From NCBI RefSeq assembly GCF_024700885.2, contig NZ_CP117016.1: a stretch of DNA of 64,000 nucleotides; one strand, given 5' to 3'. Both the position numbers and the translations under genes were made by a program. Source of the stretch: Escherichia coli. GTDB lineage: Bacteria > Pseudomonadota > Gammaproteobacteria > Enterobacterales > Enterobacteriaceae. Shown piece after piece: positions 21,687-38,998 of this stretch. The notes beneath the pieces are model-generated. The model was given only the letters and a program-made list of their open reading frames with translations, had not been told where the DNA came from and searched no databases. How positions within the stretch are numbered: the first letter of the stretch is position 1; every line of letters starts with the position of its first letter.

Positions 21687-22853
21687 ATGAACTTACATGA
21701 ATATCAGGCAAAACAACTTTTTGCCCGCTATGGCTTACCAGCACCGGTGGGTTATGCCTGTACTACTCCGCGCGAAGCAGAAGAAGCCGCTTCAAAAATC
21801 GGTGCCGGTCCGTGGGTAGTGAAATGTCAGGTTCACGCTGGTGGCCGCGGTAAAGCGGGCGGTGTGAAAGTTGTAAACAGCAAAGAAGACATCCGTGCTT
21901 TTGCAGAAAACTGGCTGGGCAAGCGTCTGGTAACGTATCAAACAGATGCCAATGGCCAACCGGTTAACCAGATTCTGGTTGAAGCAGCGACCGATATCGC
22001 TAAAGAGCTGTATCTCGGTGCCGTTGTTGACCGTAGTTCCCGTCGTGTGGTCTTTATGGCCTCCACCGAAGGCGGCGTGGAAATCGAAAAAGTGGCGGAA
22101 GAAACTCCGCACCTGATCCACAAAGTTGCGCTTGATCCGCTGACTGGCCCGATGCCGTATCAGGGACGCGAGCTGGCGTTCAAACTGGGTCTGGAAGGTA
22201 AACTGGTTCAGCAGTTCACCAAAATCTTCATGGGCCTGGCGACCATTTTCCTGGAGCGCGACCTGGCGCTGATCGAAATCAACCCGCTGGTCATCACCAA
22301 ACAGGGCGATCTGATTTGCCTCGACGGCAAACTGGGCGCTGATGGCAACGCACTGTTCCGCCAGCCTGATCTGCGCGAAATGCGTGACCAGTCGCAGGAA
22401 GATCCACGTGAAGCACAGGCTGCACAGTGGGAACTGAACTACGTTGCGCTGGACGGTAACATCGGTTGTATGGTTAACGGCGCAGGTCTGGCGATGGGTA
22501 CGATGGACATCGTTAAACTGCACGGCGGCGAACCAGCTAACTTCCTTGACGTTGGCGGCGGCGCAACCAAAGAACGTGTAACCGAAGCGTTCAAAATCAT
22601 CCTCTCTGACGACAAAGTGAAAGCCGTTCTGGTTAACATCTTCGGCGGTATCGTTCGTTGCGACCTGATCGCTGACGGTATCATCGGCGCGGTAGCGGAA
22701 GTGGGTGTTAACGTACCGGTCGTGGTACGTCTGGAAGGTAACAACGCCGAACTCGGCGCGAAGAAACTGGCTGACAGCGGCCTGAATATTATTGCAGCAA
22801 AAGGTCTGACGGATGCAGCTCAGCAGGTTGTTGCCGCAGTGGAGGGGAAATAA
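21687..22853 (+). CDS. sucC: Succinyl-CoA synthetase beta subunit, 388 aa
   Basis: [21 protein letters not shown]-grasp N-terminus. Confidence 0.97.
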
Positions 22854-23722
22854 TGTCCATTTTAATTGATAAAAACACCAAGGTTATCTGCCAGGGCTTT
22901 ACCGGTAGCCAGGGGACTTTCCACTCTGAACAAGCCATTGCATACGGCACTAAAATGGTTGGCGGTGTAACCCCAGGTAAAGGCGGCACCACCCACCTCG
23001 GCCTGCCGGTGTTCAACACCGTGCGTGAAGCTGTTGCTGCTACTGGCGCTACCGCTTCTGTTATCTACGTACCAGCACCGTTCTGCAAAGACTCCATTCT
23101 GGAAGCTATCGATGCAGGCATCAAACTGATTATCACCATCACTGAAGGCATCCCGACGCTGGATATGCTGACCGTGAAGGTGAAACTGGATGAAGCGGGC
23201 GTTCGCATGATCGGCCCGAACTGCCCAGGCGTTATCACTCCGGGTGAATGCAAAATCGGTATCCAGCCTGGTCACATTCACAAACCGGGTAAAGTGGGTA
23301 TCGTTTCCCGTTCCGGTACACTGACCTATGAAGCGGTGAAACAGACCACGGATTACGGTTTCGGTCAGTCGACCTGTGTTGGTATCGGCGGCGACCCGAT
23401 CCCTGGCTCTAACTTTATCGACATCCTCGAAATGTTCGAAAAAGATCCGCAGACCGAAGCGATCGTGATGATCGGTGAGATCGGCGGTAGCGCTGAAGAA
23501 GAAGCGGCTGCGTACATCAAAGAGCACGTTACCAAGCCTGTTGTGGGTTACATCGCTGGTGTGACTGCGCCGAAAGGCAAACGTATGGGCCACGCGGGTG
23601 CCATCATTGCTGGTGGGAAAGGGACTGCGGATGAGAAATTCGCTGCTCTGGAAGCCGCAGGCGTGAAAACCGTTCGCAGCCTGGCGGATATCGGTGAAGC
23701 ACTGAAAACTGTTCTGAAATAA
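22853..23722 (+). CDS. sucD: Succinyl-CoA synthetase alpha subunit, 289 aa
   Basis: Start overlaps sucC stop (ATAATG); CoA-binding [24 protein letters not shown]. Confidence 0.97.
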
Positions 23723-23822
23723 ATATCTGTAATAAGAAATAGCCCTCGCCGCTTCCCTCTACAGGAATGGCGAAGGGTTGTCGGTTTCGACATGGTTGGC
23801 CATCGTATGATGGCCTTTTTTA
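23723..23822 (+). ncRNA. sdhX: Probable SdhX (RybD) 3'-UTR-derived sRNA of the sdh-suc transcript
   Basis: About 100 nt between the sucD stop and a strong intrinsic terminator; in E. coli this 3' UTR is known to give rise to SdhX; exact 5' end not determinable from sequence. Confidence 0.5.
23798..23822 (+). terminator. Rho-independent terminator of the sdh-suc operon
   Basis: Hairpin GGCCATCGTATGATGGCC followed by TTTTTT. Confidence 0.85.
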
Positions 23823-24387
23823 TGCCTTAAATGTTAACCACGGTCGAAATCTGACCGCTGGCTTGACTGCATGACCACAGCCACTGTGGATTGCCGCAAC
23901 CGACCGCAAGCCACGAATAAGAACGACGGCGAATTTCGAATCGTTACCTGATGCACTGGCTTCCCAGCGTTTGACCGTAGCGTTAAGTAAATCAACAAAA
24001 GCGATGTTCACCGCTTATCGTCAAGTCGTGCCATTTGTCAGCCAGGATCGGGTCTTTACCCCGGATATTGCAGCATCGCAAAAATTCTTAGAGGGATATG
24101 CTATAAATCAAAAATAAAATCTTTGTTGATTGTTTATCATAATATCCACAGATATGATAAATGATATCAATTTAATAATTTTCACTTAATGTGATTCCGG
24201 ATAATTCGAAAGGCGCTGTGCTTTTCGGATTATTATTATCTGATTAAGATATTTGTCACGCCAGGCTTACTGGGTTATAAATGTCAATCATGATTCTTAT
24301 AAATTATTTATTGCTGCTTTGGTTACCATTACTTCGTAATAAGTAATGTATTTTTGATGGTTTAAACTATTTTTAAGGGACGGCATT

Positions 24388-25293
24388 ATGCGAGGAAAAA
24401 TACCTAAAACGGAGCTGCTGGTGACTTTTGAGGTCGTCGCACGTCATGAAAGTTATACCAGAGCGGCAGAGGAGTTAGCGTTAACCCAAAGTGCAGTATT
24501 CAGACAAGTGAGTGCGCTGGAGGAATTTTTACATACTCCGTTATTTTCACACTCTAAAAAACGTATTTTTCTTAATGATGCAGGGAAGTATTACCTGGGG
24601 ATAGTAAAAGAAACATTAAATAAGCTGGAACGCGATACCAATACCATTATGACCTGGCAGCCTACGGTTCAGGTTATTGAACTTGCCGTGAATCCTACGT
24701 TTAGTACCCACTGGTTAATCCCAAATTTACATGAATTCACAAAGTTACATCCCGATATTATTGTTAATATTCATTCTTTAGCTAATAACGGCGATTTTCT
24801 TAATCGGGAGTACGATGCTGTCATTATGCGCGAAAATTTTTGCGCGCCCTGGGCGGAAGTAGAATATCTCTTTGAAGAGGAGATTTTGCCGGTATGCAGC
24901 GGCAGTTTGCTTGCAATGTCCGATCAAAAACTGTCAGTGGCAGAACTGCTTACAGAGTTACCACTTCTGCATCAAAGTACCCGTATTACTGGCTGGGAAG
25001 AGTGGTTTGCCTTATCTGGCGTTAGCAGTCCGCTGGTCAACAACGGACCACGTTTCGATTTGCTTTCAATGCTGATTGCCGCCGTGCGCTCGAATCTCGG
25101 CGTGGCGCTGTTACCTCGTTTCGCTATTCAACATGATTTGGATAGTGGCGATATGGTGATCCCCTGTGATGTGCCTATTCGTACCGGTAATCGTTTTATT
25201 ATGACGTGGCAGGAAGAGAAGTCTGACTCACCGCACTTGCAGCAATTTCGTGAATGGTTGCTGGCGAAATCGGTCGTACCGCAGGAGATGTAA
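24388..25293 (+). CDS. LysR-family transcriptional regulator, 301 aa
   Basis: N-terminal HTH (ELALTQSAVFRQVSALEEFL) and LysR substrate-binding-like C-terminal domain; convergent with the distal end of the methylaspartate operon. Confidence 0.85.
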   Translation: MRGKIPKTELLVTFEVVARHESYTRAAEELALTQSAVFRQVSALEEFLHTPLFSHSKKRIFLNDAGKYYLGIVKETLNKLERDTNTIMTWQPTVQVIELAVNPTFSTHWLIPNLHEFTKLHPDIIVNIHSLANNGDFLNREYDAVIMRENFCAPWAEVEYLFEEEILPVCSGSLLAMSDQKLSVAELLTELPLLHQSTRITGWEEWFALSGVSSPLVNNGPRFDLLSMLIAAVRSNLGVALLPRFAIQHDLDSGDMVIPCDVPIRTGNRFIMTWQEEKSDSPHLQQFREWLLAKSVVPQEM

Positions 25294-25326
25294 AACCTGC
25301 GCCTGGCGGGATGCCAGACGCAGTTA

Positions 25327-25929
25327 TTACCAGTCGATACCCGGCTGGGCCTGAATGCCGTTATCAAAAGCATGTTTGACGGGGCGGATTTCGCTTACCG
25401 TATCCGCCATTTTTAATATCTGACTGTGGCAACCGCGTCCGGTGACAATGACACTTTGTTGTGCCGGGCGGTTTTGCAGAGAAGCGATCACTTCTTCGGT
25501 GTCCAGATAATGGTAAGCCAGCATATAGGTCAGCTCATCAAGCACCACTAAGTCGTAACGCTTGTCAGCCAGCATCCGTTTGCTTTCCGACCAGACCTCT
25601 TTCGCCGCGTCGATATCCGCTTGCCGGTTCTGTGTCTCCCAGGTAAAACCGGTTCCCATAATATGAAACTCAACCCCCAGCGGCTGGAGAAGGTTGTATT
25701 CACCGTTGTCCCATTGCCCCTTGATGTACTGCGCAACCCCCACCGTTTTGCCATGACCCACCGCGCGCGTCACAGTACCAAACGCGGCAGTGGATTTCCC
25801 TTTGCCGTTGCCGGTGAAAACAATCAAGATCCCTTTTTTCTCTATCGCCGCCGCGACGCGCGTATCGACCTGTTCCTTCAATTTCTGCTGGCGCTGCACA
25901 TGCCGTTCAGTTGAAATTCGCGCTTCCAT
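25327..25929 (-). CDS. ATP:cob(I)alamin adenosyltransferase (CobA/BtuR family paralog), 200 aa
   Basis: Strong resemblance to E. coli BtuR as I recall it (IIVFTGNGKGKTTAAFG P-loop, VVLDELTY, VITGRG, SELRPVKHAF motifs); last gene of the minus-strand operon. Confidence 0.85.
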   Translation of the reverse strand: MEARISTERHVQRQQKLKEQVDTRVAAAIEKKGILIVFTGNGKGKSTAAFGTVTRAVGHGKTVGVAQYIKGQWDNGEYNLLQPLGVEFHIMGTGFTWETQNRQADIDAAKEVWSESKRMLADKRYDLVVLDELTYMLAYHYLDTEEVIASLQNRPAQQSVIVTGRGCHSQILKMADTVSEIRPVKHAFDNGIQAQPGIDW

Positions 25930-25938
25930 TCATTTTCC

Positions 25939-27591
25939 TTAATGTCCCGCAGGGCAACTGGCGCAGCGGTGTTGCTGCTCAAACTGACTAAAGAAATTAT
26001 TGCCTTTATCATCTACCAGGATGAATGCGGGTAAATTTTCCACTTCCATCATCCACACCGCTTCCATACCCAGCTCCGGGTATTCCAGGCAACGCAGACT
26101 TTTGACATATTCTTGCGCCAGTAACGCAGCTGCACCGCCAATACTTCCCAGATTGAAGCCGCCATGTTTGTGACAGGCATCGGTGACCTGCTGGCTGCGG
26201 TTACCTTTCGATAACATCACCAGACTGCCGCCAGCCGCCTGGAAGGTATCGACATAACCGTCCATTCGTCCACCCGTGGTTGGACCCAGTGAACCGCAGG
26301 CCATGTTCTCCGGTGTTTTCGCCGGGCCAGCGTAATAGACAATATGATGCTTCAGGTAATCCGGCATCGATTCGCCGCTATCCAGCCGCGCTTTTATTTT
26401 GGCATGGGCGATATCGCGCGCCACTACGATGGGACCACTTAACGACACGCGGGTGCCTACCGGTAATCTGGCGAGATCCTGCATCACGTCACGCAACGGA
26501 CGGTTTAGATCCAGCTGTACATGTTGCGCGTGATTTTCTTCCCGCAGTGAGGCTGGAATATATTGCCCCGGATTGTGTTCGAGTTTTTCCAGCCAGATAC
26601 CGTGTTTGTTAATTTTTGCTTTGATATTGCGATCGGCAGAACAGGAGAGCGCCATAGCTATCGGGCAAGAGCCACCGTGACGCGGCAGACGAATGACGCG
26701 AATATCATGAGCGAAATATTTACCCCCAAATTGCGCACCAATACCAAATTGCTGACTGGCGTTGAGCAACGCTTTTTCCAACTCAATATCACGGAATGCT
26801 TGTCCCTGCTCGTTTCCGCTGGTGGGCAAATTGTCGTAATATTTCGTTGAGGCCAGCTTGGCAACTTTTAAGGTTTGATCGGCTGAAAGCCCTCCGACGA
26901 CAAAGGCGATGTGATAAGGCGGGCAGGCAGCGGTGCCCAGCGATTTCATTTTTTCGATTAAAAATGCGGTCAGTTTTTCTGGTTGCAATAGGGATTTTGT
27001 TTCCTGATAAAGCGCGGCTTTATTGGCAGAGCCCCCCCCTTTATTAATACAGAGAAAATGGTACTCATCACCAGCGACGGCGCTGATATCAATCTGCGCC
27101 GGTAGATTGGTTTGCGTATTGACTTCGGTATACATATCCAGTGGCGCATTTTGTGAAAAGCGCAGATTATTTTCCTGAAAAGTGGTGTAAATGCCTTTGC
27201 TTAAGGCTTCGGCGTCGTTACCTCCGGTCCATATCTGTTGCCCTTTACTGGCAACAATAGTTGCGGTGCCGGTATCCTGACAGTTGGGTAATACCCCTTT
27301 TGCTGAGACTTCAGCATTACGTAATAACTGCAACGCAACGTATTTATCATTACTGCTGGCCTGCGGATCGTTAAGAATGCTGGCGACCTGTTGCAAATGA
27401 GCGGAACGTAAGAAAAAAGAGGCTTCATAAAATGCCTGCCGGGCAAGCAGCGTTAATGCTTCAGGAGCGATTTTTATCACTTCTTCGCCGTCTAATTCCG
27501 TTACTGTAATATGTTGATCGCTAATTAATGTATATTCTGTACCGTCTTTATTTTGTAGATACGGTTCTTGCCAGATAAATGGTTTGGACAT
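25939..27591 (-). CDS. fumD: Class I (FumA/FumB-like) fumarate hydratase family protein, probable mesaconase, 550 aa
   Basis: FumA-sized single polypeptide of the Fe-S hydro-lyase family; location in the glutamate mutase/methylaspartase cluster corresponds to the mesaconase/fumarase FumD described for E. coli O157:H7 (from memory). Confidence 0.8.
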
Positions 27592-27698
27592 ATTTCACTT
27601 TTCACCTTAAACGTTAGTGTTACTTAATTGCCGTCTAACTTCATGATCCGGCTTATAAAAATGCGTAGTCATTGGCTTCTGATTGCTTAAGATCCCCC

Positions 27699-28979
27699 TC
27701 AGGGCAGAGCAACGTTCGATTCATTGGGTTTTAATGCTTTACCCCGACAACCCTCGCCGAAATGTTCGCCTTCCCACCGACTCACCAACGCAGCGCCCAT
27801 TGCGTTGCTCATGACGTTTGTCGCGGAACGCCCCATATCAAGGAACGGATCAACGCCCATCAGCAAGATCAGCCCCGCTTCCGGAATATTGAACTGGTTG
27901 AGCGTGGCGGCGATAACCACCATTGAGGCGCGTGGTACGCCAGCCATTCCTTTCGAGGTCAACATCAGGATCAACAGCATGGTGATTTGCTCACCGATGG
28001 ATAAATGGATATTGCAGGCCTGGGCGATGAAAACTGTGGCGAAGGAGCAGTAGGCCATTGATCCAACGAGATTAAATGAGTAGCCAATGGGTAAGACAAA
28101 GCTGGCAATTTTGGGGGAAACGCCAAATTGCTCCAGTTTTTCAAGCGTTCCCGGAAAAGCAGCTTCAGAACTGGATGTGGTAAATGCCAGCAGGGCGGGT
28201 TCCGAAAGGGCACGGGTCAGGCGTCTGATGCAGGGGCCGACATAAACGATGGCCAGACCGATAAGCAGCACCCAAAGTAACAACATGGTGAAATAAAATT
28301 CACCCATAAAGATCCCGGCGCTCACCATAACTGCCAGTCCTCGTTCAGCAATCAATGCTGAAATAGCGGCGAATACGGTCAGGGGAGCGAAGAGCATGAC
28401 GTAGCCAGTGAGCTTTAACATGGCATGTGCCAGCGAATCTAAGGCGTGAACGATGGCGCTGCCTTTCTCACCAATCGCCGTCAGGCTACAGCCGAGGAAA
28501 ATTGAGAACACCACGATTTGCAAAATTTCATTGTGCGCCATGGCATCGACAATGCTGGTGGGGAAAGCATGCGAAATAAATACTTTTAGCGTAAAGGGTT
28601 CTGACGCGACCACTCCGGTGGTTTCGGCACCGTGTGCAACAAAATTAATTCCTGTGCCTGGCATGAAGAAATTTACCGTTATCAAGCCTAAGGCAATTGA
28701 CAGCAATGAGGCGCAAATAAATAAAAAGAGTGTTTTAGAAAAAATACGACCAAGGGCTTTGGCATCGCCCATTTTAGCAATACCTACCACCAGGGTAGAG
28801 ACCACTAACGGAGCGATAATCATTTTTATCAGTCGTAAGAAAATCGTCGTGAATATCGATATTTCTTGCGCATAGAGTTTTGCTGTTTCCGGTGAAGCAG
28901 TGTTATTGATCACTACGCCGATAATCATTCCAAGTACCAGCGCCAAAAGAATCATCGTGGTTAAACTTATTTTCTTCAT
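27699..28979 (-). CDS. Dicarboxylate/amino acid:cation symporter (DAACS, GltP/DctA-like) family transporter, about 426 aa
   Basis: Multi-pass hydrophobic ORF with the family-typical N-terminus; start placed at MKKISL (ATG at 28979), preceded by GGAGGA 7 nt upstream; the ORF-track start at 29000 is a GTG. Confidence 0.8.
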   Translation of the reverse strand: MKKISLTTMILLALVLGMIIGVVINNTASPETAKLYAQEISIFTTIFLRLIKMIIAPLVVSTLVVGIAKMGDAKALGRIFSKTLFLFICASLLSIALGLITVNFFMPGTGINFVAHGAETTGVVASEPFTLKVFISHAFPTSIVDAMAHNEILQIVVFSIFLGCSLTAIGEKGSAIVHALDSLAHAMLKLTGYVMLFAPLTVFAAISALIAERGLAVMVSAGIFMGEFYFTMLLLWVLLIGLAIVYVGPCIRRLTRALSEPALLAFTTSSSEAAFPGTLEKLEQFGVSPKIASFVLPIGYSFNLVGSMAYCSFATVFIAQACNIHLSIGEQITMLLILMLTSKGMAGVPRASMVVIAATLNQFNIPEAGLILLMGVDPFLDMGRSATNVMSNAMGAALVSRWEGEHFGEGCRGKALKPNESNVALP

Positions 28980-29139
28980 TTTTTCCTCCATCAGGTGCAC
29001 GGCGATAAATCAGAATCAGGAGAAGTAGATGCCCGAATAAAAATTCAGGCATCTACCTGCTATTACAACCTTACAAATAGCTGAAGTGTTGAACTGCAAT
29101 AAGTGACGGGATGTCAGTTGGCTAAAAGTGTTCGGATTT

Positions 29140-29457
29140 TTACAAATCGAAACTCATATTTAATAAAGGTGCATGTTGCTGTGCACCATAGACATCATTG
29201 TCACCTACATTCCCGGAGATAATATCTCGTGGCATGACGATTTTTACTGCGTTAGAAGGATCAAACCAGACAATACGATGAATAAAGTCAGGTTCAACAT
29301 GATATAAGCGCGCGATCAGTTCTGGGGTTAATTGCCCTGATGATTTAACTCGCTCATAGTTTTCTTTGGTTTTAAATAAAATATCTAAAACCAGTTCGTA
29401 AGGTCCGGCATTTTTCGAACGAATGACTTGCGCCAGTGAGACAATTGACTGTTTCAT
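29140..29457 (-). CDS. DUF4387-like small protein, 105 aa
   Basis: Small soluble ORF whose start overlaps the stop of the upstream DUF1446-like gene by 4 nt; family assignment from recollection of the DUF1446/DUF4387 pair. Confidence 0.6.
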   Translation of the reverse strand: MKQSIVSLAQVIRSKNAGPYELVLDILFKTKENYERVKSSGQLTPELIARLYHVEPDFIHRIVWFDPSNAVKIVMPRDIISGNVGDNDVYGAQQHAPLLNMSFDL

Positions 29458-30824
29458 GCCTGAACTCCTTCTGGCGTCACCTGTTCAATATGGAAATCAA
29501 AACGCAGAGCGTCGTTGGCTTCAATCAGGTGATATATGGAAAATTCGTATACCGGCCCGCCCTGAATATCAGAAGGGGAGAACGGGAATGCCAGGTTGCC
29601 TGCGGTAGCGATGCGGTTTTCATAGCCGTAGTGCAGCATAGTAGAGCGCACCAGCGAGCAAACGCTATTGGCAATATCCTGGGTCGGTGCAACTACATCA
29701 AGGACAATCCCCAGCTCATGCCCGGCAGTTTGCATCGGTTCATGGTCGCCCATCACCCCGTTTTTGCCGTACAGGTGGAAATTGATGCGAATGCTGTCAT
29801 CGTCGAGCGACAGGTTACGCGAAACGCTGGTTTTGACTTCATCGATGATTTTATCGATCCCGGCGATCATGATCGGGTCGCGCGTTCCGGCGATGGTCAG
29901 ACAGCGGAAGCCCACCCGTCGCGCACCTTCCAGTTTCAGGGCATACGGCGTTTCTTCATGCTTAGAACCGCTGACGTACACTTCGCCGTCATTGACCGCT
30001 TTAAATGTGCAGCCTTTCAGGTTCAACACGCCGCCAGGTCCTGGCAGGAAGTAGGGATCGGATTTCTCATACAGTGTGTGTGCAGCTGCTGACGTTTCGG
30101 TAAATTTACGCTTCGGATTAAATGTCTTCAGCGTAAAGCCGTTGTCATCAATGATGCCCATCGCACAGTCAGAGCCTGAGCCGGGCGTTGCGGCGATTGC
30201 CGCGCATTCAAGGATTTTCCCACAATGCAGCGCCAGACCTTCATCAAAGCCTTGCATGATCGGTAGCGCAGCAAAGCAGGCCGGGTCGTAAGCGCGCCCG
30301 CCCAGCACCACTTGCGCGCCTTCTTTCAGCGCCTGCTGGAAGGGTTCGATGCCCATTTGCGCGACGATATACGTACTTTCGTCAATCGCGTCGTGGGTTA
30401 ACGGCGGGACAAAATCCAGCGCCGTGATTTTGCCGTTATCCAGCGCCTGGTGGACGATGGCTTTGTCAACGTCTGCCGGGATCAGCGCCATCGAGAACGA
30501 GAGGTGCTCTTCCCGGGCAATCTCATGAATTATTTCTCGGCACCACTCCAGGTGTGGAGCGGCACCAGAACCGCCGGCCGTTCCGATCACCACCGGTATA
30601 TTATTTTGCACGCCTGCGGTGATCATATAGCGCAGATCGCGCTTGACCCCTGCGCGATCGGTAAACGGTTTGCCCGCCCCGAGGTAGTGGGGGCCAGGAT
30701 CGGAAGAGCCAGCATCAACGGCGATCAGATCGGGCGATTCTGCCATCGCTTTGCGGAAGCTCTCCTCCGGGAATCCATACCCGAGGATTGCCGTAGGCGA
30801 TAAGACTTTAAAAGAACGAGCCAT
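29454..30824 (-). CDS. AtuA-like (DUF1446) family protein, 456 aa
   Basis: About 450-aa soluble ORF resembling acyclic-terpene-utilisation AtuA-like proteins (my recollection); 3 nt downstream of the methylaspartase gene in the same operon. Confidence 0.6.
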   Translation of the reverse strand: MARSFKVLSPTAILGYGFPEESFRKAMAESPDLIAVDAGSSDPGPHYLGAGKPFTDRAGVKRDLRYMITAGVQNNIPVVIGTAGGSGAAPHLEWCREIIHEIAREEHLSFSMALIPADVDKAIVHQALDNGKITALDFVPPLTHDAIDESTYIVAQMGIEPFQQALKEGAQVVLGGRAYDPACFAALPIMQGFDEGLALHCGKILECAAIAATPGSGSDCAMGIIDDNGFTLKTFNPKRKFTETSAAAHTLYEKSDPYFLPGPGGVLNLKGCTFKAVNDGEVYVSGSKHEETPYALKLEGARRVGFRCLTIAGTRDPIMIAGIDKIIDEVKTSVSRNLSLDDDSIRINFHLYGKNGVMGDHEPMQTAGHELGIVLDVVAPTQDIANSVCSLVRSTMLHYGYENRIATAGNLAFPFSPSDIQGGPVYEFSIYHLIEANDALRFDFHIEQVTPEGVQA

Positions 30825-30827
30825 TTG

Positions 30828-32069
30828 TTAATCCTTAGCCTGCAACAGCGCGATAGTACGATTCATTTCGTTGAAGACGATATCGAGGCCTTCGTCAAAG
30901 CCCATCCCTGGCTTTACCAGCATACGCATAGGGCGAGCGGCAAGGGCGATGTGGACACAGGTGCGGGCACTGACATCAGTTTCATTGCAGGTGCCGCCCT
31001 GGTACGCTTCCATGCTGTGGCTATTGCAGTAAAGAACCGCATCGACGATGTTGTGAATACTGCCCAGATCCGGGGTTTTGATTTGCACCATGTGACAACT
31101 GGCGGCATCAGTAAAATCAACAATATCCTGGTAGGTGTTACACCATTCATCGGCCACAATTTTCACGCCGGAACCGAGGCGCGTCAGCTCTTTGGTAATC
31201 GCGGTCAGCAGGCGAATTTGATCGGGCTTGTTACCGGCATCGACCGGACCTTCAATGTAGAGCGGCAGGCCTTGCGCTTCTTTTTCCAGGCTGGCGATGT
31301 ATTGCGCACAGCGAAGCGGATCCATATCGAAGATCAGACCGATAGTGCCGTATACATCGATGTGCAGGGTAGGGTGGTAGCGTGCGCTGGTGCGCTTGCT
31401 CAGAATACGATCCGACAGCCAGCGGACATATTCGCGCAGTTTTTCACCTTTAAAGCCCAGTTTCTCTTCGACGTTATTAATCAGTGCATGGGGCAGCACG
31501 TCGATGCCCTTAAGGATCATCTTATCGACGGCGATATATCGATCGTCGCCGCTCTGACCAAATAATGGAATGGATTCCGCCACGCGTGGCAACTGCCATT
31601 CATCACAGACCACTTCAGTTTTCAGACGGCCGGTTGCCAGCGCGGTAGCATCAAGCAGCGCCTGTGATAATCCGTAGCGCACGGCGGTATGCAGCAAGTT
31701 GCCGTCAATACGCAATTTGTCGAAGAAACGGGCATTCGGCAGGAAAGCATCTACATCGCGGCCTACCAGTAATGGCTTGATATGGTCGTTGAGGAACGGA
31801 ATAAAGTGCTCTGCGAGGAACAGTGGATCGCGACCACCTGCCCCGGAATACTGTACGGCAGCACAGTCACCTACGGCGACCGCGCCGTTTTCCAGAATCA
31901 ACTGTACCGATACGCACTCCCCGGCCTGACGTACGGCGTTAAACCCCTGTGTTACTGGCTCCCCGGTATAAAAAAAGCCGTCGTGACCCGCTCCGTTTTT
32001 TATCGCCTGCTGGTCATCGAAATAGAATGAGGAGTAGCCAGCGGTGAACAGGGCCTGTTTTATTTTCAT
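30828..32069 (-). CDS. 3-methylaspartate ammonia-lyase (methylaspartase, enolase superfamily), 413 aa
   Basis: N-terminus MKIKQALFTAGYSSFYFDDQQAIKNGAGHDGFFYTGEPVT and length are typical of methylaspartase; start overlaps the glmE stop. Confidence 0.9.
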   Translation of the reverse strand: MKIKQALFTAGYSSFYFDDQQAIKNGAGHDGFFYTGEPVTQGFNAVRQAGECVSVQLILENGAVAVGDCAAVQYSGAGGRDPLFLAEHFIPFLNDHIKPLLVGRDVDAFLPNARFFDKLRIDGNLLHTAVRYGLSQALLDATALATGRLKTEVVCDEWQLPRVAESIPLFGQSGDDRYIAVDKMILKGIDVLPHALINNVEEKLGFKGEKLREYVRWLSDRILSKRTSARYHPTLHIDVYGTIGLIFDMDPLRCAQYIASLEKEAQGLPLYIEGPVDAGNKPDQIRLLTAITKELTRLGSGVKIVADEWCNTYQDIVDFTDAASCHMVQIKTPDLGSIHNIVDAVLYCNSHSMEAYQGGTCNETDVSARTCVHIALAARPMRMLVKPGMGFDEGLDIVFNEMNRTIALLQAKD

Positions 32070-33514
32070 TATGGTCTTCCTATTAATTTACTGTGGGATA
32101 CAGCATTGATGTCATCTACAACCATCTGGAATGTCGGTTGGCGTCCTTCAAAGCGTGCGCGTTCCGCAACGTAATCGTGGTGGAGGTCGAGAATATCTTT
32201 TGGCAATGGAACGGCTCCGGCTTCCAGTACGCGTATCGCGCCGGTGTTGTCACGGACCGGAAGAATTTTGCCCGCGTTGCAGGCGGCTGGCGCAAACGGC
32301 ACATCCAGTACGCCCGCTTCAAATGCCAGCACCGTACCGCGCGCAATATCACCATTACCCAGTTCGAACACTTTATTCAGTACCGCGCGAACCTCGCTCT
32401 TAATCAGTTCAATTTCCAGTTCAACCGCAGGGCAAGGCGGGAATTTCTGCTCGTTGACCATGTTGAGCATCTGGCGGGAGGCTTTCAGCCCCTGAATGTT
32501 GGCAGCGGCAGTCGGGATGCCCCAGGCTTCGTGCGGACTTTTGGTGATGACTTTGGTGGCACCAGACATCCCCGCGACGGCTGCACCCCAGGAGATAATG
32601 GCGAACGCTTTCGATTCGTCTTCCGGAAAGCCGCCCATCCACTGGTGAAACACGGTACTTAATTCATAGTCGGTATAGCCATAGCTCTGAAAGTATTCGT
32701 GTGCAAGTTCACGCAGAGACTGGATCGCCGCGACATCCTGCGTCAGGCTGCCGACCTGTCCATAACCAACGGTGATAGATTTCACACCCTGTTCCAGCGC
32801 CAGTAATCCTTCGATTATCGCGATAGAGTGCGAGATAAACGGCGGGATCAGCGTACCCGTTAGTGGGCCAAACGGTTCGCGGTTGATGCGGATCCCGTGT
32901 TCTTCATACATCCCCATTAAACGATCGCAGTACTGCCAGTCGCGGATCGATTTTTCCAGCGTTACGCGCTTGGCATACGGAATATTGTAGGAAATGCCGC
33001 CGCCTTCATAACTGGTAAAGCCGCTGGCCATCGAGATTTCAGCCAGCAGACGCGCATCTGGCGTGCCGTGGCGGATCTGTAGCGGTTTTTGCAAAGTTTC
33101 GGTGAGGCGACGGCAAGCTGCGACGCCGTGGTTAACTACCGGTAAACCGTTCAGTTTAGAGGTTCCGGCTTCGATGGATTTTTTAATCCCTACAGCCGCT
33201 TCTTCGTACCGATTCAGACGGGTATATGCATCGATGGTGCTCGGCAGCAGATCGCACTCTTCTTGTGGTGTTTTCAGTAGTTCGATGTGTTCGTCCATCA
33301 GCGCCACGCCTGCGCGCGGTTGGCTAAGAGTTTTACCTTCCTTGTCTGCTTTCAGCAGGGCAAGAGAGAAGCGTTTATGCTCAGGAATGGTTTGTTGGTA
33401 TTTAACGCCATCTTCAAAGTTTTCAACATCCTTGCCGGTTTCCCAGGTTTTCAGTACCTGTTGCCGCTCGGTCATGAATTCGTCATGGGTTAATTTCTTA
33501 TTTCGAAGTTCCAT
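32069..33514 (-). CDS. glmE: Glutamate mutase epsilon (catalytic, E) subunit, 481 aa
   Basis: Length and sequence consistent with methylaspartate mutase E chain; sits between glmL and the methylaspartase gene as in clostridial glmS-glmL-glmE clusters. Confidence 0.88.
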   Translation of the reverse strand: MELRNKKLTHDEFMTERQQVLKTWETGKDVENFEDGVKYQQTIPEHKRFSLALLKADKEGKTLSQPRAGVALMDEHIELLKTPQEECDLLPSTIDAYTRLNRYEEAAVGIKKSIEAGTSKLNGLPVVNHGVAACRRLTETLQKPLQIRHGTPDARLLAEISMASGFTSYEGGGISYNIPYAKRVTLEKSIRDWQYCDRLMGMYEEHGIRINREPFGPLTGTLIPPFISHSIAIIEGLLALEQGVKSITVGYGQVGSLTQDVAAIQSLRELAHEYFQSYGYTDYELSTVFHQWMGGFPEDESKAFAIISWGAAVAGMSGATKVITKSPHEAWGIPTAAANIQGLKASRQMLNMVNEQKFPPCPAVELEIELIKSEVRAVLNKVFELGNGDIARGTVLAFEAGVLDVPFAPAACNAGKILPVRDNTGAIRVLEAGAVPLPKDILDLHHDYVAERARFEGRQPTFQMVVDDINAVSHSKLIGRP

Positions 33515-33749
33515 TGATTGCAGCCTTAATTGTTATAGGGTTAAGCATTGAATACTGGTGCGCGCGGCGGCCAGTGGATCGACTCTGGCGACGTTTGCCA
33601 GCAGTGGTAATAGCCCCCGGGAATCGCGGTAATATTCAAATTCGGTCGGTAAGAGAATGCGTTTACCGTCGTCGTTTAACTCGCGGTATTTCAACCAGTG
33701 ATGCATATCGAACTGACTGGCACGCGAGAGCCATCCGCCGGAACCAACG

Positions 33750-33757
33750 ACTTTACG
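33750..33757. repeat. Target-site duplication (left copy) ACTTTACG
   Basis: 8-bp direct repeat immediately flanking the IS26 left inverted repeat. Confidence 0.85.
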
Positions 33758-34577
33758 GGCACTGTTGCAAATAGTCGGTGGTGATAAACTTATCATCCCC
33801 TTTTGCTGATGGAGCTGCACATGAACCCATTCAAAGGCCGGCATTTTCAGCGTGACATCATTCTGTGGGCCGTACGCTGGTACTGCAAATACGGCATCAG
33901 TTACCGTGAGCTGCAGGAGATGCTGGCTGAACGCGGAGTGAATGTCGATCACTCCACGATTTACCGCTGGGTTCAGCGTTATGCGCCTGAAATGGAAAAA
34001 CGGCTGCGCTGGTACTGGCGTAACCCTTCCGATCTTTGCCCGTGGCACATGGATGAAACCTACGTGAAGGTCAATGGCCGCTGGGCGTATCTGTACCGGG
34101 CCGTCGACAGCCGGGGCCGCACTGTCGATTTTTATCTCTCCTCCCGTCGTAACAGCAAAGCTGCATACCGGTTTCTGGGTAAAATCCTCAACAACGTGAA
34201 GAAGTGGCAGATCCCGCGATTCATCAACACGGATAAAGCGCCCGCCTATGGTCGCGCGCTTGCTCTGCTCAAACGCGAAGGCCGGTGCCCGTCTGACGTT
34301 GAACACCGACAGATTAAGTACCGGAACAACGTGATTGAATGCGATCATGGCAAACTGAAACGGATAATCGGCGCCACGCTGGGATTTAAATCCATGAAGA
34401 CGGCTTACGCCACCATCAAAGGTATTGAGGTGATGCGTGCACTACGCAAAGGCCAGGCCTCAGCATTTTATTATGGTGATCCCCTGGGCGAAATGCGCCT
34501 GGTAAGCAGAGTTTTTGAAATGTAAGGCCTTTGAATAAGACAAAAGGCTGCCTCATCGCTAACTTTGCAACAGTGCC
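33758..34577 (+). mobile_element. IS26 (IS6 family), complete 820-bp copy
   Basis: 14-bp terminal inverted repeats GGCACTGTTGCAAA (33758-33771) and TTTGCAACAGTGCC (34564-34577); internal transposase matches IS26 Tnp as I recall; flanked by 8-bp direct repeats. Confidence 0.93.
33821..34525 (+). CDS. tnpA: IS26 transposase Tnp26 (DDE), 234 aa
   Basis: MNPFKGRHFQRDIILWAVRWYCKYGISYRELQEMLAERGVNVDHSTIYRWVQRYAPEMEK is the canonical IS26 transposase N-terminus (from memory); start placed at the ATG 18 nt inside the ORF-track start. Confidence 0.93.
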   Translation: MNPFKGRHFQRDIILWAVRWYCKYGISYRELQEMLAERGVNVDHSTIYRWVQRYAPEMEKRLRWYWRNPSDLCPWHMDETYVKVNGRWAYLYRAVDSRGRTVDFYLSSRRNSKAAYRFLGKILNNVKKWQIPRFINTDKAPAYGRALALLKREGRCPSDVEHRQIKYRNNVIECDHGKLKRIIGATLGFKSMKTAYATIKGIEVMRALRKGQASAFYYGDPLGEMRLVSRVFEM

Positions 34578-34585
34578 ACTTTACG
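34578..34585. repeat. Target-site duplication (right copy) ACTTTACG
   Basis: 8-bp direct repeat immediately flanking the IS26 right inverted repeat. Confidence 0.85.
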
Positions 34586-35748
34586 CACGGTTGTCAGGTC
34601 ACGTCCCATCTGTAAATCGACATTGCCGACGCAGGTGCAGACCTCTTTTTTGGTGCCCGCATGTCTTTCGGTGGCATAACCCACACACAGTCCGGCCAGG
34701 ACGGTATCGAAATATTTTTCTTCTGCATTCGCGGGTAAGTAGTCGGGATGAGCGACTAGATGGCGGAGGTAATGATAAAAAGCGTCCAGCTGTGCGGGTT
34801 GCTGAGCAAAATTCACATTGACTAACTCTTTCGCACTTTCACCAACCACCATTGCCGAGACGCGCATTCCCAGATCGCCTTCCACCGTCCGTTTCACGAA
34901 GGGTTCCGGTACGCCGTGTAAAACGGTGTCGGGCGAGAGCGTGTTGGCACAGGCGGAATAGACATCGGTGGTTGCGCCACCCATGTCGATCAGCATGAAC
35001 TCTTTCCAGCTGTGATCGACGTTACTGATTGCCTTAACCAGTTCAAAGACCGTCCATGGTGTCGGCATTGGTTCTTCGCCTGTTTTATCAACAATGACAT
35101 CCAACCCTTTCCCTTTAACGATGCGTTTAAGGAATATGTCGCAGATAGCCTGGCGTGCAGCTAAAGGGTTCGGATGGTCAAGATCGGGCAGAACGTTGTC
35201 GACGATGGTCAGGTCTTTATGCCCGAGGATCTCCTGCACCTCGTCCTGAATATCCCGGTTTCCGGCATAAATAATGGCGCAGTCGAGTTTGGATTCTGCC
35301 AACACACGGGCGTTATTCAGTCCGTAGCTTTCTTCTCCGCCATCGGTGCCGCCGGTGAACAAGAGAATATCGGGCTGCGTTTCTTCCAGTGCCTGGATAT
35401 CACGGCGGTTCAGCTTGTAGGCGTAATATTGCGCAATTTTAGCACCCGCAGAGTGAGCGGTTACTTTCGCGGTTTCCAGGGTGATAGAAGGCACCAATCC
35501 CATTGCGGCAACCGCCAGCCCACCTTTGGCAGAGGAGGAATACTTCAATGCAACCTCACCACTGTTTAACAGGGGGAGGGCATTATCTACGTTTAACACC
35601 TGGTCCAGGCTGGAGAAAAACCCCTTCGCCAGATGATGGGTGGTGGTTGGGGTCAGAACGTGGTTAACCAACGTTAACGCGTCCCCCTCCCGGGTGAAGA
35701 GGGCTGCTTTGGTCCACGTCGAACCAATATCGACAGAGACGATTTGCA

Positions 35749-36198
35749 TCAGATTGCCTCTTCAAGAATGCGAGTATCAACGTCATGACGTTGGTTGATA
35801 TCGTGGGCCATCAGCTGACAAACATCTTCTAAGTCATGACTTGGGGAAAAGACGCGATCAAATCCCATCTCTTTGAACTTGGTTTCCACGTCAGCGAAGT
35901 CATGTTTTCCGACCACCAGGTTACCGCCCACATAGAGCAGGATGTTACCCAGCCCACGCTCGATGCAGCGTTCGCGCATGCCCAGACAATCGATATCGCC
36001 ATGCCCATAGATAGAGGAGACGACAATCGCGTCAGCACCAGTTTCAATGGCAGCATCAATATATTCGTCCTGGCTGACCATTACGCCCAGATTAATAACT
36101 CTGAAGTCATGGTTGCTAAAAACGCGGTCCAGAACTTTATTGCCTACTGCATGGCAGTCCGCGCCAATAACGCCAATCACAAGTGTTGCTTTCTTCAT
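35749..36198 (-). CDS. glmS: Glutamate mutase sigma (B12-binding, S) subunit, about 149 aa
   Basis: [24 protein letters not shown] contains the DxHxxG cobalamin-binding signature; start at ATG 36198 preceded by AGGA; stop overlaps the glmL start (ATGA). Confidence 0.88.
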
Positions 36199-36745
36199 GG
36201 GTAATCCTTTGTAAGACAGAGAGTAAAATAAGTTACACACGTCGTATTTATGGCCGCTCATAACGGCACAGGTTTAATATCACAGGAGTGTCTTTATCTG
36301 ACCGTAATGTTGCAATTGATCTATTTTCAAAATGTCTTTCGGGAAATGATTGTTTAAAGTGTGTTTTCAAATTCTCATTTTAATTCAGTGTGTTATGTCA
36401 ACTAATGTCATGAATGTTAAATTTTTAAAATTAACTTGATTTGATGTATTGAGATAATTGTGATCAACTTCTAATTTGCATTTTTGTGACGTGGCTTTAG
36501 CCATGAGTAAATACATTTCATAAAAGTTAAGTCGAATTTCACTGCAATTCATCTCTGCTTAATGTAAAAATAATGTTGAAAATAACAAATAATTAATGAT
36601 TCATGCGAATTATGACCTTTGTTAGCTCTTTTGATTTTTCGTAAAAAAGAAAAGTACATGAAGGTGCTACCAGTACGAGTAACGTTAATCAAAAGTTTTA
36701 TTACGTCTGGCAATAACGCAGGCCATTTTTCGCGACAGGAGGGAT

Positions 36746-37168
36746 TTAATCAGTATAATCCTCATACAATAGGTCAGGATTTACTGAACCGTTAACGGGG
36801 ATTTGGTGTTGAAATTTAGAAATGGCGGAGTCAATTAATGAAGACAATATCGGAAAAATGACAGTGTCAGAATTAATTTCAATTAATCCTTCTCGTTGTT
36901 GACCAAAAAAGATATTTATCTTGATTTCATTTGTACTACGGCAATCAATATGCAGTAATTTTTGATCGCTGAGATTTTCTGTTTCATAAATGTTTTTGGC
37001 GATAGTCGGATGTATTGATGCCAGACATCTGCTCAGATAAGCCAGATCCTTTAGGGAACACCCCGCTGAGTAGAGGATGTCAGAGAATTTTTGTGTGTCA
37101 ACTGTTGTCTCTGAAGCGTATGTTGCATTGACAGGAAGGGTGTTGAAAGAGATTTGAGATGGGATCAT
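36746..37168 (-). CDS. Hypothetical protein, 140 aa, no recognisable family
   Basis: ORF in a markedly AT-rich block; co-directional with and 80 bp downstream of the 314-aa orphan ORF; coding status unverified. Confidence 0.45.
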   Translation of the reverse strand: MIPSQISFNTLPVNATYASETTVDTQKFSDILYSAGCSLKDLAYLSRCLASIHPTIAKNIYETENLSDQKLLHIDCRSTNEIKINIFFGQQREGLIEINSDTVIFPILSSLIDSAISKFQHQIPVNGSVNPDLLYEDYTD

Positions 37169-37248
37169 TATTTAAATCTTTCCGTGAGTAATAAAAATTA
37201 ATCCCCGGGCATTGTTTAGCAATATTTGCCACAGGGAATATATAAAAA

Positions 37249-38193: not shown

Positions 38194-38647
38194 AGCAGCA
38201 ACCTCATTGTAATCAAGCGAGGCGCTGAGCGTACTCGGCTATAGAAAAACTAACTTGCAAAAATCGCTCATTTTTCATTTATCAGGCGAAAGTGGTCTCT
38301 GTTCACTCAGAAACAATCACTCCCGCTAAGTCATACCTGTATCATCGATACATTTAAGTGATTATTACTAATGAAACAATAACATAACGGGCTTACGGCC
38401 GGTGCTCATAAACGCAACAATCAATTAACTTTGATAAAAATATGTTATGTAAAATAGCAACAAATTGGCTAATCTAATCAATTGGTATTATAAAAAGTGG
38501 ATAAGGCGGTTCTGTTAAATAAAACACTGGTTTTTTATCTATACCTTTTCATTGTAATAATTGTGTTGCATAAATATTTCACAATAAATTAACAATAAAA
38601 TTACCAATGATCTATGGTTTATACATAATTAACATATTTGGTTGGTT

Positions 38648-38661: not shown

Positions 38662-38998
38662 TTTTTAATTCTTGAAAAAAATCTGCAAAACACGATAAAT
38701 TGTCGTAGATCAAATTGGTGAGATCGTGACAATTTCGCTATAAATTGATCACTGTCGAAAAATGCAAATTTGCTCAATAAAAACCTGTTTATTGTAAGGA
38801 TTTTGCGGCGTAATATAATTACGGGATCAATTTGGTTTATTCATTAACATATTTGTAACTTTTTTATCATTGTCTTTTCCTCTTTTGATGAAATGGCAAC
38901 GATAGAGGCGAGCAAATAATTTTGTATTGGGGCATGCGTGTGACCCTTTCTAACGGGGTTCACTCTCGGAGTCTTCATGCGATGAGCAAGGAGTCATG

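Follow-up and report, generated by a model that had tools for sequence, protein, structure and literature searches.

We analysed a stretch of 64 kb of E. coli DNA (the window) in which the gene for a transcriptional regulator of the LysR type (LTTR; 24388-25293, plus strand) lies beyond the last gene of an operon of nine minus-strand genes, glmS-glmL-glmE-mal-atuA-DUF4387-gltP-fumD-cobO. The first gene is glmS, which encodes the B12-binding subunit of glutamate mutase (35749-36198; PF02310, RefSeq start). It is followed by glmL (mutL), encoding the glutamate mutase reactivase (33533-35749; PF13941, split over two ORFs by IS26), glmE for the glutamate mutase E subunit (32069-33514; PF06368), mal for methylaspartate ammonia-lyase (30828-32069; PF05034/PF07476), an atuA-like gene (29454-30824; PF07287), a DUF4387 gene (29140-29457; PF14330), a gltP-like gene for a dicarboxylate/amino acid:cation symporter (27699-28979; PF00375, RefSeq start), fumD for a class I fumarase/mesaconase (25939-27591; PF05681 and PF05683) and, as the last gene, cobO for an ATP:corrinoid adenosyltransferase (25327-25929; PF02572, E 5e-64, RefSeq). 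All genes from cobO to glmS (25327-36198) are on the minus strand and are separated by gaps of 0-160 bp. The longest ORF would start glmS at 36261, but the ATG at 36198 is preferred because it is the RefSeq start and belongs to a ribosome-binding site plus ATG, AGAGGATTACCCATG, that is conserved in all genera.

The co-localization of glmS, glmE, glmL/mutL, mal and fumD, seen in the Pfam content and in an identical locus in RefSeq, identifies a methylaspartate cluster, in which the atuA-DUF4387 pair is kept 3' of mal in most loci. Among the cluster genes examined, no regulator gene besides the LysR one was found. The cluster occupies the slot between sdhX and cydA that holds mngRAB in K-12, and homology to K-12 stops at 23829, just past sdhX. 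Every operon gene is intact in the reference strain, but not in the window strain, where an 820-bp IS26 (33758-34577, plus strand) splits glmL, as is evident when it is aligned with glmL of strain elppa4, which is intact. The transposase of the element matches the NCBIfam IS6-family profile NF033587 (275.5 bits, cut-off 125) and Pfam DDE_Tnp_IS240. Moreover, its ends, GGCACTGTTGCAAA and TTTGCAACAGTGCC, carry 14-bp terminal inverted repeats, an 8-bp target duplication (ACTTTACG) can be read from the sequence, and BLAST matches to the element are annotated as IS26.

The regulator is an intact LTTR of 301 aa, with the size (about 300 aa), the N-terminal winged helix-turn-helix (PF00126 HTH_1, residues 9-67, E 7.3e-18, 64.7 bits against a Pfam cut-off of 26.6) and the C-terminal effector-binding domain (PF03466 LysR_substrate, residues 96-293, E 4e-28, 98.7 bits against 28) of this family. 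It is 100% identical to P0001, a protein cluster with 1620 member sequences. The closest named profile is that of GcvA (NCBIfam NF008352, E 1e-65); however, the score of 221.5 bits is under the family cut-off of 288, and therefore the regulator is not GcvA, to which it shows 31.5% identity in E. coli K-12. DsdC was rejected likewise, as the score for its profile (NF007491, E 1e-42, 145.8 bits) is below the curated cut-off of 316. Searching the literature for the locus tags, and for work on the regulator in general, returned nothing past a figure label in Kronen & Berg 2015 (PLoS One 10:e0145098, Fig 5; PMC4682846), where the cluster is drawn with a "putative LTTR".

The sequence-only reading had placed the regulator gene tail to tail with the 3' end of the operon, which is correct; the gap between it and cobO is indeed short but measures 33 bp (25294-25326) rather than the 34 bp given there. 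The distance of about 11 kb to the operon promoter region also holds, with the stop codon about 11.0 kb and the start codon about 11.9 kb from the conserved site upstream of glmS described below. The convergent gap contains a hairpin (25297-25323) of 11 pairs, 8 of them G-C, with a loop of 5, and the minus-strand tail after it reads GTTTTACATC (GTTTTAC). The hairpin resembles a terminator of the minus-strand operon and may act in both directions.

Cross-genus conservation and a position weight matrix (PWM) revealed a 21-bp candidate LTTR recognition box, TTTTGAAAATAGATCAATTGC (36312-36332, minus strand), centred about 125 bp 5' of the glmS start codon. Its core, TGAAAATAGATCA (36317-36329), has the form TGA-N7-TCA and is a T-N11-A imperfect dyad, which is the general architecture of LTTR sites (PMC11495319). 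In all E. coli-type loci the box is kept with at most one mismatch, amid flanking spacer DNA that does not align. It is the unique top PWM match in the window, with 29.6 bits against 14.1 for the second, on a background of only about 6-7 matches of at least 15 bits in 3.3 Mb of strand. Plain pattern counting is uninformative on its own, since TGA-N7-TCA occurs 23 times in the window and 16.4 +/- 3.9 occurrences are expected; neither this pattern nor T-N11-A can serve as a site finder, and the true site is singled out by cross-genus conservation only.

Variants of the box are recognizable in Gamma-, Beta- and Alphaproteobacteria and lie 104-246 bp 5' of the glmS ATG in 55 of the 69 loci. Within the fetched DNA, the regulator is present in 39 of the 55 box-positive loci versus none of the 14 box-negative ones, a count that is partly circular because the glmS sites themselves served to train the PWM, and that is confounded by phylogeny because all box-negative clusters come from distant lineages. 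Among the fetched clusters, those of Firmicutes, Acidobacteria and other distant lineages carry neither the LysR orthologue nor the box, and Telmatospirillum has the box with no regulator orthologue seen in the fetched 13 kb. Additional boxes occur about 100-160 bp 5' of fumD in loci that have fumD-cobO as a unit of its own (four Yersinia species, Enterobacteriaceae bacterium B14, and loci L083 and L084), and Yokenella and Enterobacter sp. ENT03 have a further box in the spacer between lysR and the btuC-like gene. Alternatively, another factor could bind the box, or the box could be an element of a promoter. CRP and FNR half-sites follow the consensus TGA-N6-TCA and the ARG box has a spacing of N8; CRP, FNR and ArgR were rejected as binders on account of the N7 spacing in the box. 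Additionally, an IHF consensus match over GATCAATTGC was discarded because it is not kept within E. coli itself.

The box lies in an AT-rich region upstream of glmS (36199-36745, minus strand) that presumably holds the operon promoter. Scanning the operon strand 5' of glmS for a consensus sigma-70 promoter gave no match, which suits an activator-dependent promoter without proving anything. Comparison of the glmS upstream regions also revealed a second conserved block, GATCACAA (around 36455-36480), and another one about 215 bp 5' of the glmS ATG. Inside the operon, the gltP-fumD spacer (107 bp) and the DUF4387-gltP spacer (160 bp; 28980-29139, minus strand) are free of boxes of at least 3 bits and, on the operon strand, of consensus promoters. 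The search for T-N11-A motifs that had been recommended therefore ended in a conserved site upstream of glmS and in no box in the operon-internal spacers, and the proposal that the regulator controls an internal promoter is not borne out. The DUF4387-gltP spacer holds a conserved hairpin with compensatory changes (alignment and RNAalifold, 12 genera), which is unlikely to be a terminator because a T tract is missing in most genera. Control by RNA in place of protein, for example by a cobalamin riboswitch, was rejected, as Rfam searches found no family, the cobalamin riboswitch included, either in the whole island or in the loci of Yokenella, Yersinia, Morganella and Paludibacterium.

The promoter of the regulator itself is presumed to lie in an island-specific AT-rich region (23830-24387, plus strand; GC 0.36) that begins where K-12 homology ends; the GC content is also 0.36 over 24000-24499. 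Simple scanning of the plus strand 5' of the regulator for the sigma-70 consensus gave no match. This region includes an inverted repeat read from the sequence, TTTATCATA-N11-TATGATAAA (24134-24162); at 24157-24177, a site on the minus strand weakly resembles the box (12.1 bits with an enlarged PWM). Both are E. coli-specific and show no conservation in other genera, and their meaning is doubtful; the box-like site may be a relic or a chance match. Across E. coli-type loci, the box PWM found no position-conserved site 5' of the regulator (best scores 3-11 bits), and a box-mediated autoregulatory site was rejected for these loci because nothing is conserved in position.

Of 5426 complete E. coli genomes, 1127 carry the regulator and 1131 carry mal-glmE, so that the cluster is present in about a fifth of them, O157:H7 strains included. 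The distal-convergent position recurs in 33 species-level loci from about ten genera, and is thus more than a peculiarity of a single genome; regulator orthologues in the genera with E. coli-type gene order are 71-93% identical. At least 7 of these 33 loci lie in another chromosomal context, since neither sucD nor cydA is found in their fetched flanks. In 9 other loci the regulator is on the glmS-upstream side, and in Yokenella, ENT03 and Yersinia it is there on the opposite strand. It is divergent from btuC/BtuB/BtuF-like genes preceding glmS in Yokenella and ENT03; the Yersinia regulator is the first gene of lysR-fumD-cobO, a set transcribed divergently from cobalamin genes and glmS. The order cob operon, lysR, fumD, cobO occurs in B14 and in a related MAG, with the glm genes on the same contig. 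In the Betaproteobacteria Azoarcus and Paludibacterium, the regulator is directly divergent from glmS and the box lies inside the 189-313-bp spacer (189 bp in Azoarcus, about 300 bp in Paludibacterium). The betaproteobacterial regulators show 45% identity, and their orthology is taken from synteny and the shared box together with this modest margin over GcvA (36%). The fumD-cobO pair adjoins the regulator in all arrangements but the Yokenella type, with one gene between in L084, the regulator being either co-directional upstream or convergent downstream of the pair.

The regulator has thus been retained in the cluster through at least four gene orders and two proteobacterial classes. The comparison of gene orders suggested in the sequence-only reading links it to the cluster in the 33 convergent and 9 upstream-side loci, and co-occurrence and conserved synteny clearly contradict a regulator whose linkage to glutamate mutase clusters is consistently absent. 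The premise that an LTTR outside a divergent arrangement is out of the ordinary holds only mildly, as trans-acting LTTRs are well known (PMC11495319). Divergence from a target gene across a shared operator, which is usual but not required in LTTRs, is absent in the window and present in the Azoarcus, Paludibacterium, Yokenella and ENT03 orthologues; the position of orthologues upstream of or divergent from glmS in outgroups supports the earlier idea of a remnant of another ancestral arrangement. Circularly permuting the Yokenella order gives the one found in Escherichia, Citrobacter, Salmonella, Klebsiella and Enterobacter. Circular permutation is therefore a possible route that fits the gene orders, and paths through inversion plus transposition are also conceivable.

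GcvA, the best profile match of the regulator, shares its two-domain architecture and sets a precedent for LTTR action in trans on an unlinked operon (gcv). The GcvA gene adjoins gcvB and is divergent from it, and GcvA works with GcvR. Unlike that of GcvA, the proposed target of the regulator lies in cis, 11-12 kb away. DsdC, the D-serine deaminase activator, belongs to the same LTTR subgroup by profile and, together with other amino-acid-catabolic LTTRs, offers a parallel for pathway-specific control in which the target is a small operon of amino-acid catabolism; dsdC and dsdXA are transcribed divergently, whereas the divergent layout of the regulator survives in outgroup lineages only. In clostridial glutamate-fermentation clusters, the same role of a cluster-encoded regulator of the methylaspartate pathway falls to a GntR-type regulator, which is from an unrelated family (Kronen & Berg 2015, Fig 4; PMC4682846). 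What Kronen & Berg drew as an LTTR is this very gene within this cluster (glmS, glmE, mutL/glmL, mal, DUF1446/AtuA-like, gltP, fumD and cobA/cobO), given with a family label only, without an operator, a comparison of regulator positions or expression data. New relative to that work are the box, the other gene orders and the divergent form seen in Betaproteobacteria; otherwise, the regulator is an ordinary pathway-specific LTTR and not a new kind of system.

We consider it likely from the comparative sequence data that this protein is the pathway-specific LTTR of the methylaspartate cluster and acts in trans at the glmS promoter within a derived gene order. Action in trans on the distant promoter, one of the possibilities raised before, is supported because the sole strong conserved operator-like site in the window lies about 125 bp 5' of glmS. 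In the proposed mechanism, the regulator would be expressed from its own presumed promoter beside sdhX and would diffuse to one high-affinity site, the 21-bp box 5' of glmS. Bound there, it would control, most likely as an activator, one long transcript from glmS to cobO that would end at the hairpin in the convergent gap. Glutamate, 3-methylaspartate or mesaconate are effector candidates by analogy with DsdC, an amino-acid-responsive LTTR. The tail-to-tail order would be derived and the ancestral side would be upstream of glmS, as in the outgroups; the regulator may have moved to the other end of the cluster in the Escherichia-Citrobacter-Salmonella-Klebsiella-Enterobacter form, a move that would have cost it the box in its own upstream region.

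Alternatively, the regulator might mainly control its neighbours fumD-cobO (perhaps gltP) from an internal promoter, with glmS controlled otherwise. Its adjacency to fumD-cobO in all but the Yokenella-type arrangements, the boxes of separate fumD-cobO units and the existence of 107- and 160-bp internal spacers, the latter with its conserved hairpin, speak for such control. However, the spacers in the window contain no box of at least 3 bits or operon-strand consensus promoter, the hairpin, lacking a T tract in most genera, is unlikely to end transcription, and the strongest and best-conserved box is 5' of glmS in all lineages, which makes local control quite improbable. The regulator could also be a linked passenger with unrelated targets or a response to a general signal, in which case the box would belong to another, unlinked factor or to the core promoter. 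Close paralogues in other contexts fit this possibility (a 69%-identical one in Citrobacter portucalensis; homologues of 41-45% identity also lie in non-glm contexts), as does the lack of a conserved box 5' of the regulator gene in E. coli-type loci. GcvA, the closest named relative, is itself unlinked to the gcv operon. Many LTTRs, moreover, work in trans or globally (PMC11495319). Nevertheless, a passenger seems unlikely, given that the regulator stays in the cluster across these gene orders and both classes, that the box tracks it, and that it is found in none of the 14 box-negative clusters. In addition, TGA-N7-TCA is unlike the TGA-N6-TCA of CRP and FNR but fits T-N11-A.

According to another explanation, the cluster is cryptic: in E. 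coli, operon and regulator alike would be evolutionary leftovers, the regulator would no longer do anything, and its position would be a scar left by an old rearrangement. In E. coli O157:H7, FumD has been characterized as a mesaconase. The methylaspartate pathway was not inducible in this organism under any condition tried, and neither methylaspartase activity nor a growth benefit was seen in any tested condition (Kronen & Berg; PMC4682846); pathway function in E. coli is therefore only putative. Tolerance of IS26 in glmL by the window strain and truncated regulator alleles in the protein database (for example P0074, 189 aa, 180 member sequences) are also in keeping with decay. On the other hand, the dN/dS of 0.042 between the regulator and its orthologue in Escherichia sp. 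E1V33 indicates strong purifying selection, and the regulator is full-length with at least 95% identity in 1119 of 1127 carrier genomes. Furthermore, the operon of the reference strain is wholly intact, the box is invariant across genera, and the IS26-glmL junction is private to the window strain, being found in none of 5426 complete genomes. We thus regard a mere leftover as very unlikely.

Going beyond pathway-specific control at the glmS promoter, the box and the regulator might define a small regulon conserved in Alpha-, Beta- and Gammaproteobacteria, in which a rearrangement uncoupled the regulator and left the pathway silent in E. coli; we put this forward as a tentative possibility. Such a regulon would join fumD-cobO to the glutamate mutase/methylaspartase operon and would extend in some genera to B12-uptake genes, and the permutation-like rearrangement would have separated the regulator from its operator, after which operator-coupled autoregulation would have been lost. 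If true, the uncoupling together with a putative effector could account for the failure so far to induce the pathway in E. coli, and supplying the regulator or its ligand could wake a silent B12-dependent glutamate fermentation in pathogenic E. coli. The cluster encodes the B12-dependent conversion of glutamate to citramalate, and no expression condition has been found for it in E. coli so far (PMC4682846). The regulator and its precise candidate operator offer a direct experimental handle on the cluster, and they present a case of an LTTR and a putative operator that were parted by rearrangement and yet remain in one cluster. The GC content of the regulator gene is low (0.45 vs 0.53 for glmE), which at first sight could point to a separate origin. 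This reading was dropped, because the regulator gene is 2-13 points under glmE in all 42 loci compared, whatever the gene order.

The LysR-type regulator (LTTR) gene at 24388-25293 (+) encodes both LTTR domains. It converges on the 3' end of the methylaspartate (glutamate mutase) operon, as the sequence-only reading had described, with cobO as the neighbouring gene; the convergent gap, given there as 34 bp, is 33 bp long (25294-25326). Within this gap, an 11-pair hairpin (25297-25323) precedes GTTTTAC on the operon strand. The regulator matches a protein cluster of 1620 member sequences at 100% identity, shares 31.5% identity with E. coli GcvA, and scores under the GcvA and DsdC cut-offs; it is an uncharacterised LTTR of a known type. 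The methylaspartate-pathway cluster of E. coli O157:H7 and other enterobacteria has already been described, and the regulator's gene and position were drawn there in 2015 (Kronen & Berg, PMC4682846).

The window belongs to the E. coli chromosome, where sucD (22853-23722) ends the sdhCDAB-sucABCD run and cydA starts at 38996. Homology to K-12 ends at 23829, just past the sdhX sRNA, and picks up again at 38623; between sdhX and cydA, a 14.8-kb cassette (23830-38622) stands in place of K-12 mngR-mngA-mngB. A terminator hairpin just past sucD (23798-23815; GGCCATCGTATGATGGCC, then a T run) corresponds to the end of the K-12-annotated sdhX sRNA. Rfam at the gathering threshold returned no family for it, nor did an Rfam search of the island find one. 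On the minus strand, the operon comprises glmS (35749-36198), glmL (33533-35749), glmE (32069-33514), mal (30828-32069), an AtuA-like gene (29454-30824), a DUF4387 gene (29140-29457), a gltP-like symporter gene (27699-28979), fumD (25939-27591) and cobO (25327-25929). Neighbours in this row overlap or are 3-18 bp apart, with longer spacers, of 107 and 160 bp, at two places only; glmS starts with the ATG at 36198, and AGAGGATTACCC precedes this ATG in every genus. Two low-GC minus-strand ORFs of 140 aa (36746-37168) and 314 aa (37249-38193) separate the glmS promoter region from cydA. Neither has a Pfam or NCBIfam match, and, bar one hypB match at 50% identity in an Escherichia sp., all loci in which they were seen share 97-100% identity with E. 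coli.

Gene-order comparison, proposed in the sequence-only reading as a check that could have shown the regulator to be consistently unlinked to glutamate mutase clusters, showed that the two are linked. Regulator and mal-glmE occur in 1127 and 1131 of 5426 complete E. coli genomes, respectively, near-equal counts that show only that they form one island. Across species, the comparison covered 80 loci around Mal relatives, one genome per species, onto which the window proteins were mapped. The window-like order is found in 33 loci from Escherichia, Citrobacter, Salmonella, Klebsiella, Enterobacter, Lelliottia, Pluralibacter, Buttiauxella, Raoultella and Pseudescherichia, with regulator orthologues (71-93% identity) convergent behind cobO, or behind fumD where cobO is absent. 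The cluster uses the sdhX-cydA slot in Citrobacter, Salmonella, Klebsiella and Pseudescherichia as well, but the identical gene order sits at another site in Enterobacter, Lelliottia, Buttiauxella and Pluralibacter; at least 7 of the 33 loci have neither sucD nor cydA in the fetched flanks and thus lie in another chromosomal context. Two Escherichia loci (L004, Escherichia sp. E1V33; L064, E. whittamii) lack a full gltP match and have a fragmentary cobO while keeping the regulator and the glmS-upstream site described below, indicating that accessory cluster genes decay independently of the regulator.

In nine further loci, the regulator lies on the glmS-upstream side, on the opposite strand. 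In Yokenella and Enterobacter sp. ENT03 (57-58%), it is divergent from the genes preceding glmS, which encode a BtuC-like FecCD permease, an ABC ATPase, a TonB-dependent receptor and a BtuF-like protein; the ATPase gene is apparently split into two ORFs. In four Yersinia species (62-65%), it is the first gene of lysR-fumD-cobO, divergent from a tetrapyrrole methylase gene, a PduX-like kinase gene and glmS. In Paludibacterium and Azoarcus (45%), regulator and glmS are directly divergent, separated by ~300 and 189 bp, respectively. The reverse search from regulator homologues agrees with the Mal-based survey: homologues at 60-72% identity adjoin fumD-cobO, and in Enterobacteriaceae bacterium B14 and one other contig (L040) a homologue follows the cob operon, with glm genes on the same contig. 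The betaproteobacterial proteins are nearer to the window regulator (45%) than to E. coli GcvA (36%). Since a 69%-identical paralogue in Citrobacter portucalensis (L085 10001-10906) lies away from the glm cluster and homologues at 41-45% are not glm-linked, glm linkage marks a sub-clade rather than the whole similarity neighbourhood. This paralogue adjoins an MFS transporter and a porin gene, near B12-dependent diol/glycerol dehydratase genes.

Apart from a few blocks, the upstream regions of glmS from fifteen E. coli-type genomes, in which the regulator is convergent as in the window, have essentially no alignable sequence. The strongest block is a 21-bp box, TTTTGAAAATAGATCAATTGC (36312-36332, minus strand), which every E. 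coli-type locus matches with at most one mismatch. The core of the box, TGAAAATAGATCA, forms a T-N11-A dyad (TGA-N7-TCA). In the window, 114 bp separate the end of the box from the glmS ATG. Variants precede glmS in Yersinia (TCCTGACAATATATCAATTGT), Hafnia (TCCTGACGAGATATCAATTGT), Morganella (TCCTTACTTTATATCAATTGT), Yokenella (TCTTCAAATTTTATCAATTGC), Paludibacterium (TAGTGATTTTATATCGTTTGC), Azoarcus (TCCTGATGATATATCGTTTGC) and Telmatospirillum (ATCTGAAAATAGATCGTTTCT). The Azoarcus box lies 27 bp from the regulator ATG at one end and 142 bp from the glmS ATG at the other, a classic LTTR shared-operator layout. Another conserved element (GACACTCC in E. coli-type loci, GCACATTA in Yersinia) is found 18-19 bp downstream of the box, and we infer that it could serve as an activation site or belong to the promoter. 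A simple promoter scan placed neither the glmS nor the regulator promoter. Two more cross-genus blocks precede glmS on the minus strand: AAATnAGAnnnnGATCACAAA at 36455-36480, with a good TCACA half-site and a poor partner for CRP, and ACAnnTGAT ~215 bp before the ATG.

With a weight matrix built from these glmS-upstream sites, the box is the sole outstanding match in the 64-kb window (29.6 bits; the next, inside tRNA genes, reaches 14.1 bits), against a background of ~6-7 unexplained matches of at least 15 bits in 3.3 Mb of strand. Enough upstream sequence was available for 69 loci, and 55 of them carry a box of at least 19 bits. The regulator is present in 39 of these 55 within the fetched DNA, the remainder being truncated or having it farther away on the same contig, and in none of the 14 box-negative loci. 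This co-occurrence is strong circumstantial evidence rather than proof, because the matrix was trained on the same sites and all loci without a box belong to distant lineages. In Yokenella and ENT03, a box-like site also lies in the spacer between lysR and the btuC-like gene (L045 1749-1769, L042 1748-1768), where Rfam found no cobalamin riboswitch, and B12 uptake may share the regulon there.

Taken together, the regulator is most likely the cluster's own LTTR, acting in trans at one recognition site 5' of glmS; a single glmS-to-cobO transcript would end at the hairpin in the convergent gap. Action on the distant promoter was among the options of the sequence-only reading and is favoured by the conserved box. 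In the general LTTR model, a high-affinity T-N11-A regulatory site is combined with weaker activation sites (PMC11495319). Three rivals jointly hold about a third of the probability. The regulator might control an internal fumD-cobO promoter only: matrix sites do occur ~100-160 bp 5' of fumD, but only in genomes with a separate fumD-cobO unit (B14, L083, L084 and Yersinia vastinensis, with a lower-scoring conserved block in three other Yersinia), and the window has no box of at least 3 bits in either internal spacer or the convergent gap. The regulator could also be a passenger, with another factor binding the box, or the system could have decayed; the regulator itself is under strong purifying selection (dN/dS 0.042 versus Escherichia sp. 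E1V33; synonymous sites are saturated versus other genera).

The suggestion that the position is a remnant of a different ancestral arrangement is supported by the outgroups: all of their arrangements place the regulator on the other side, and the convergent position is thus a derived order. As candidate routes, the E. coli order could be a circular permutation of the Yokenella order, and the Yersinia order the Yokenella order plus one inversion. In E. coli-type loci, regulator and target no longer have an operator in common, and classic autoregulation through that site would therefore have been lost or replaced. E. coli-type loci have no positionally conserved box 5' of the regulator; the window has one weak, E. 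coli-specific box-like site there (24157-24177, 12.1 bits), adjoining an inverted repeat (24134-24162).

LTTR genes typically lie divergent from a target gene, and LTTRs that act in trans are common (PMC11495319); a non-divergent LTTR is unsurprising. The present analysis adds evidence across genera that ties the regulator to the cluster, traces how its position has changed and defines a precise candidate operator. So far, nobody has switched the pathway on in E. coli (PMC4682846), and regulator and candidate operator offer a practical handle on this modest problem.

In the window strain, the operon under this regulator is probably non-functional. An IS26 copy (IS6 family, 820 bp; 33758-34577), flanked by the 8-bp target duplication ACTTTACG, splits glmL into two ORFs and is likely polar on glmE through cobO; its junction with glmL is found in 0 of 5426 complete E. 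coli genomes and is thus private to this strain. The ~160-bp DUF4387-gltP spacer (28980-29139, minus strand) is conserved across genera and folds into a long hairpin in which several base-pair changes are compensatory (RNAalifold -36 kcal/mol over 12 genera). A T tract is missing in most genera and Rfam gave no match; the spacer may act in the processing, stability or translation of gltP. Behind mal, most proteobacterial clusters carry the AtuA-like and DUF4387 genes (29140-30824), as do some Firmicutes and Acidobacteria loci (e.g. L063, L070, L072, L079). Neither protein matched an NCBIfam model. The fate of citramalate in E. coli has been described as unknown (PMC4682846); the conserved pairing with mal suggests that the AtuA-like and DUF4387 proteins serve an unassigned pathway step.
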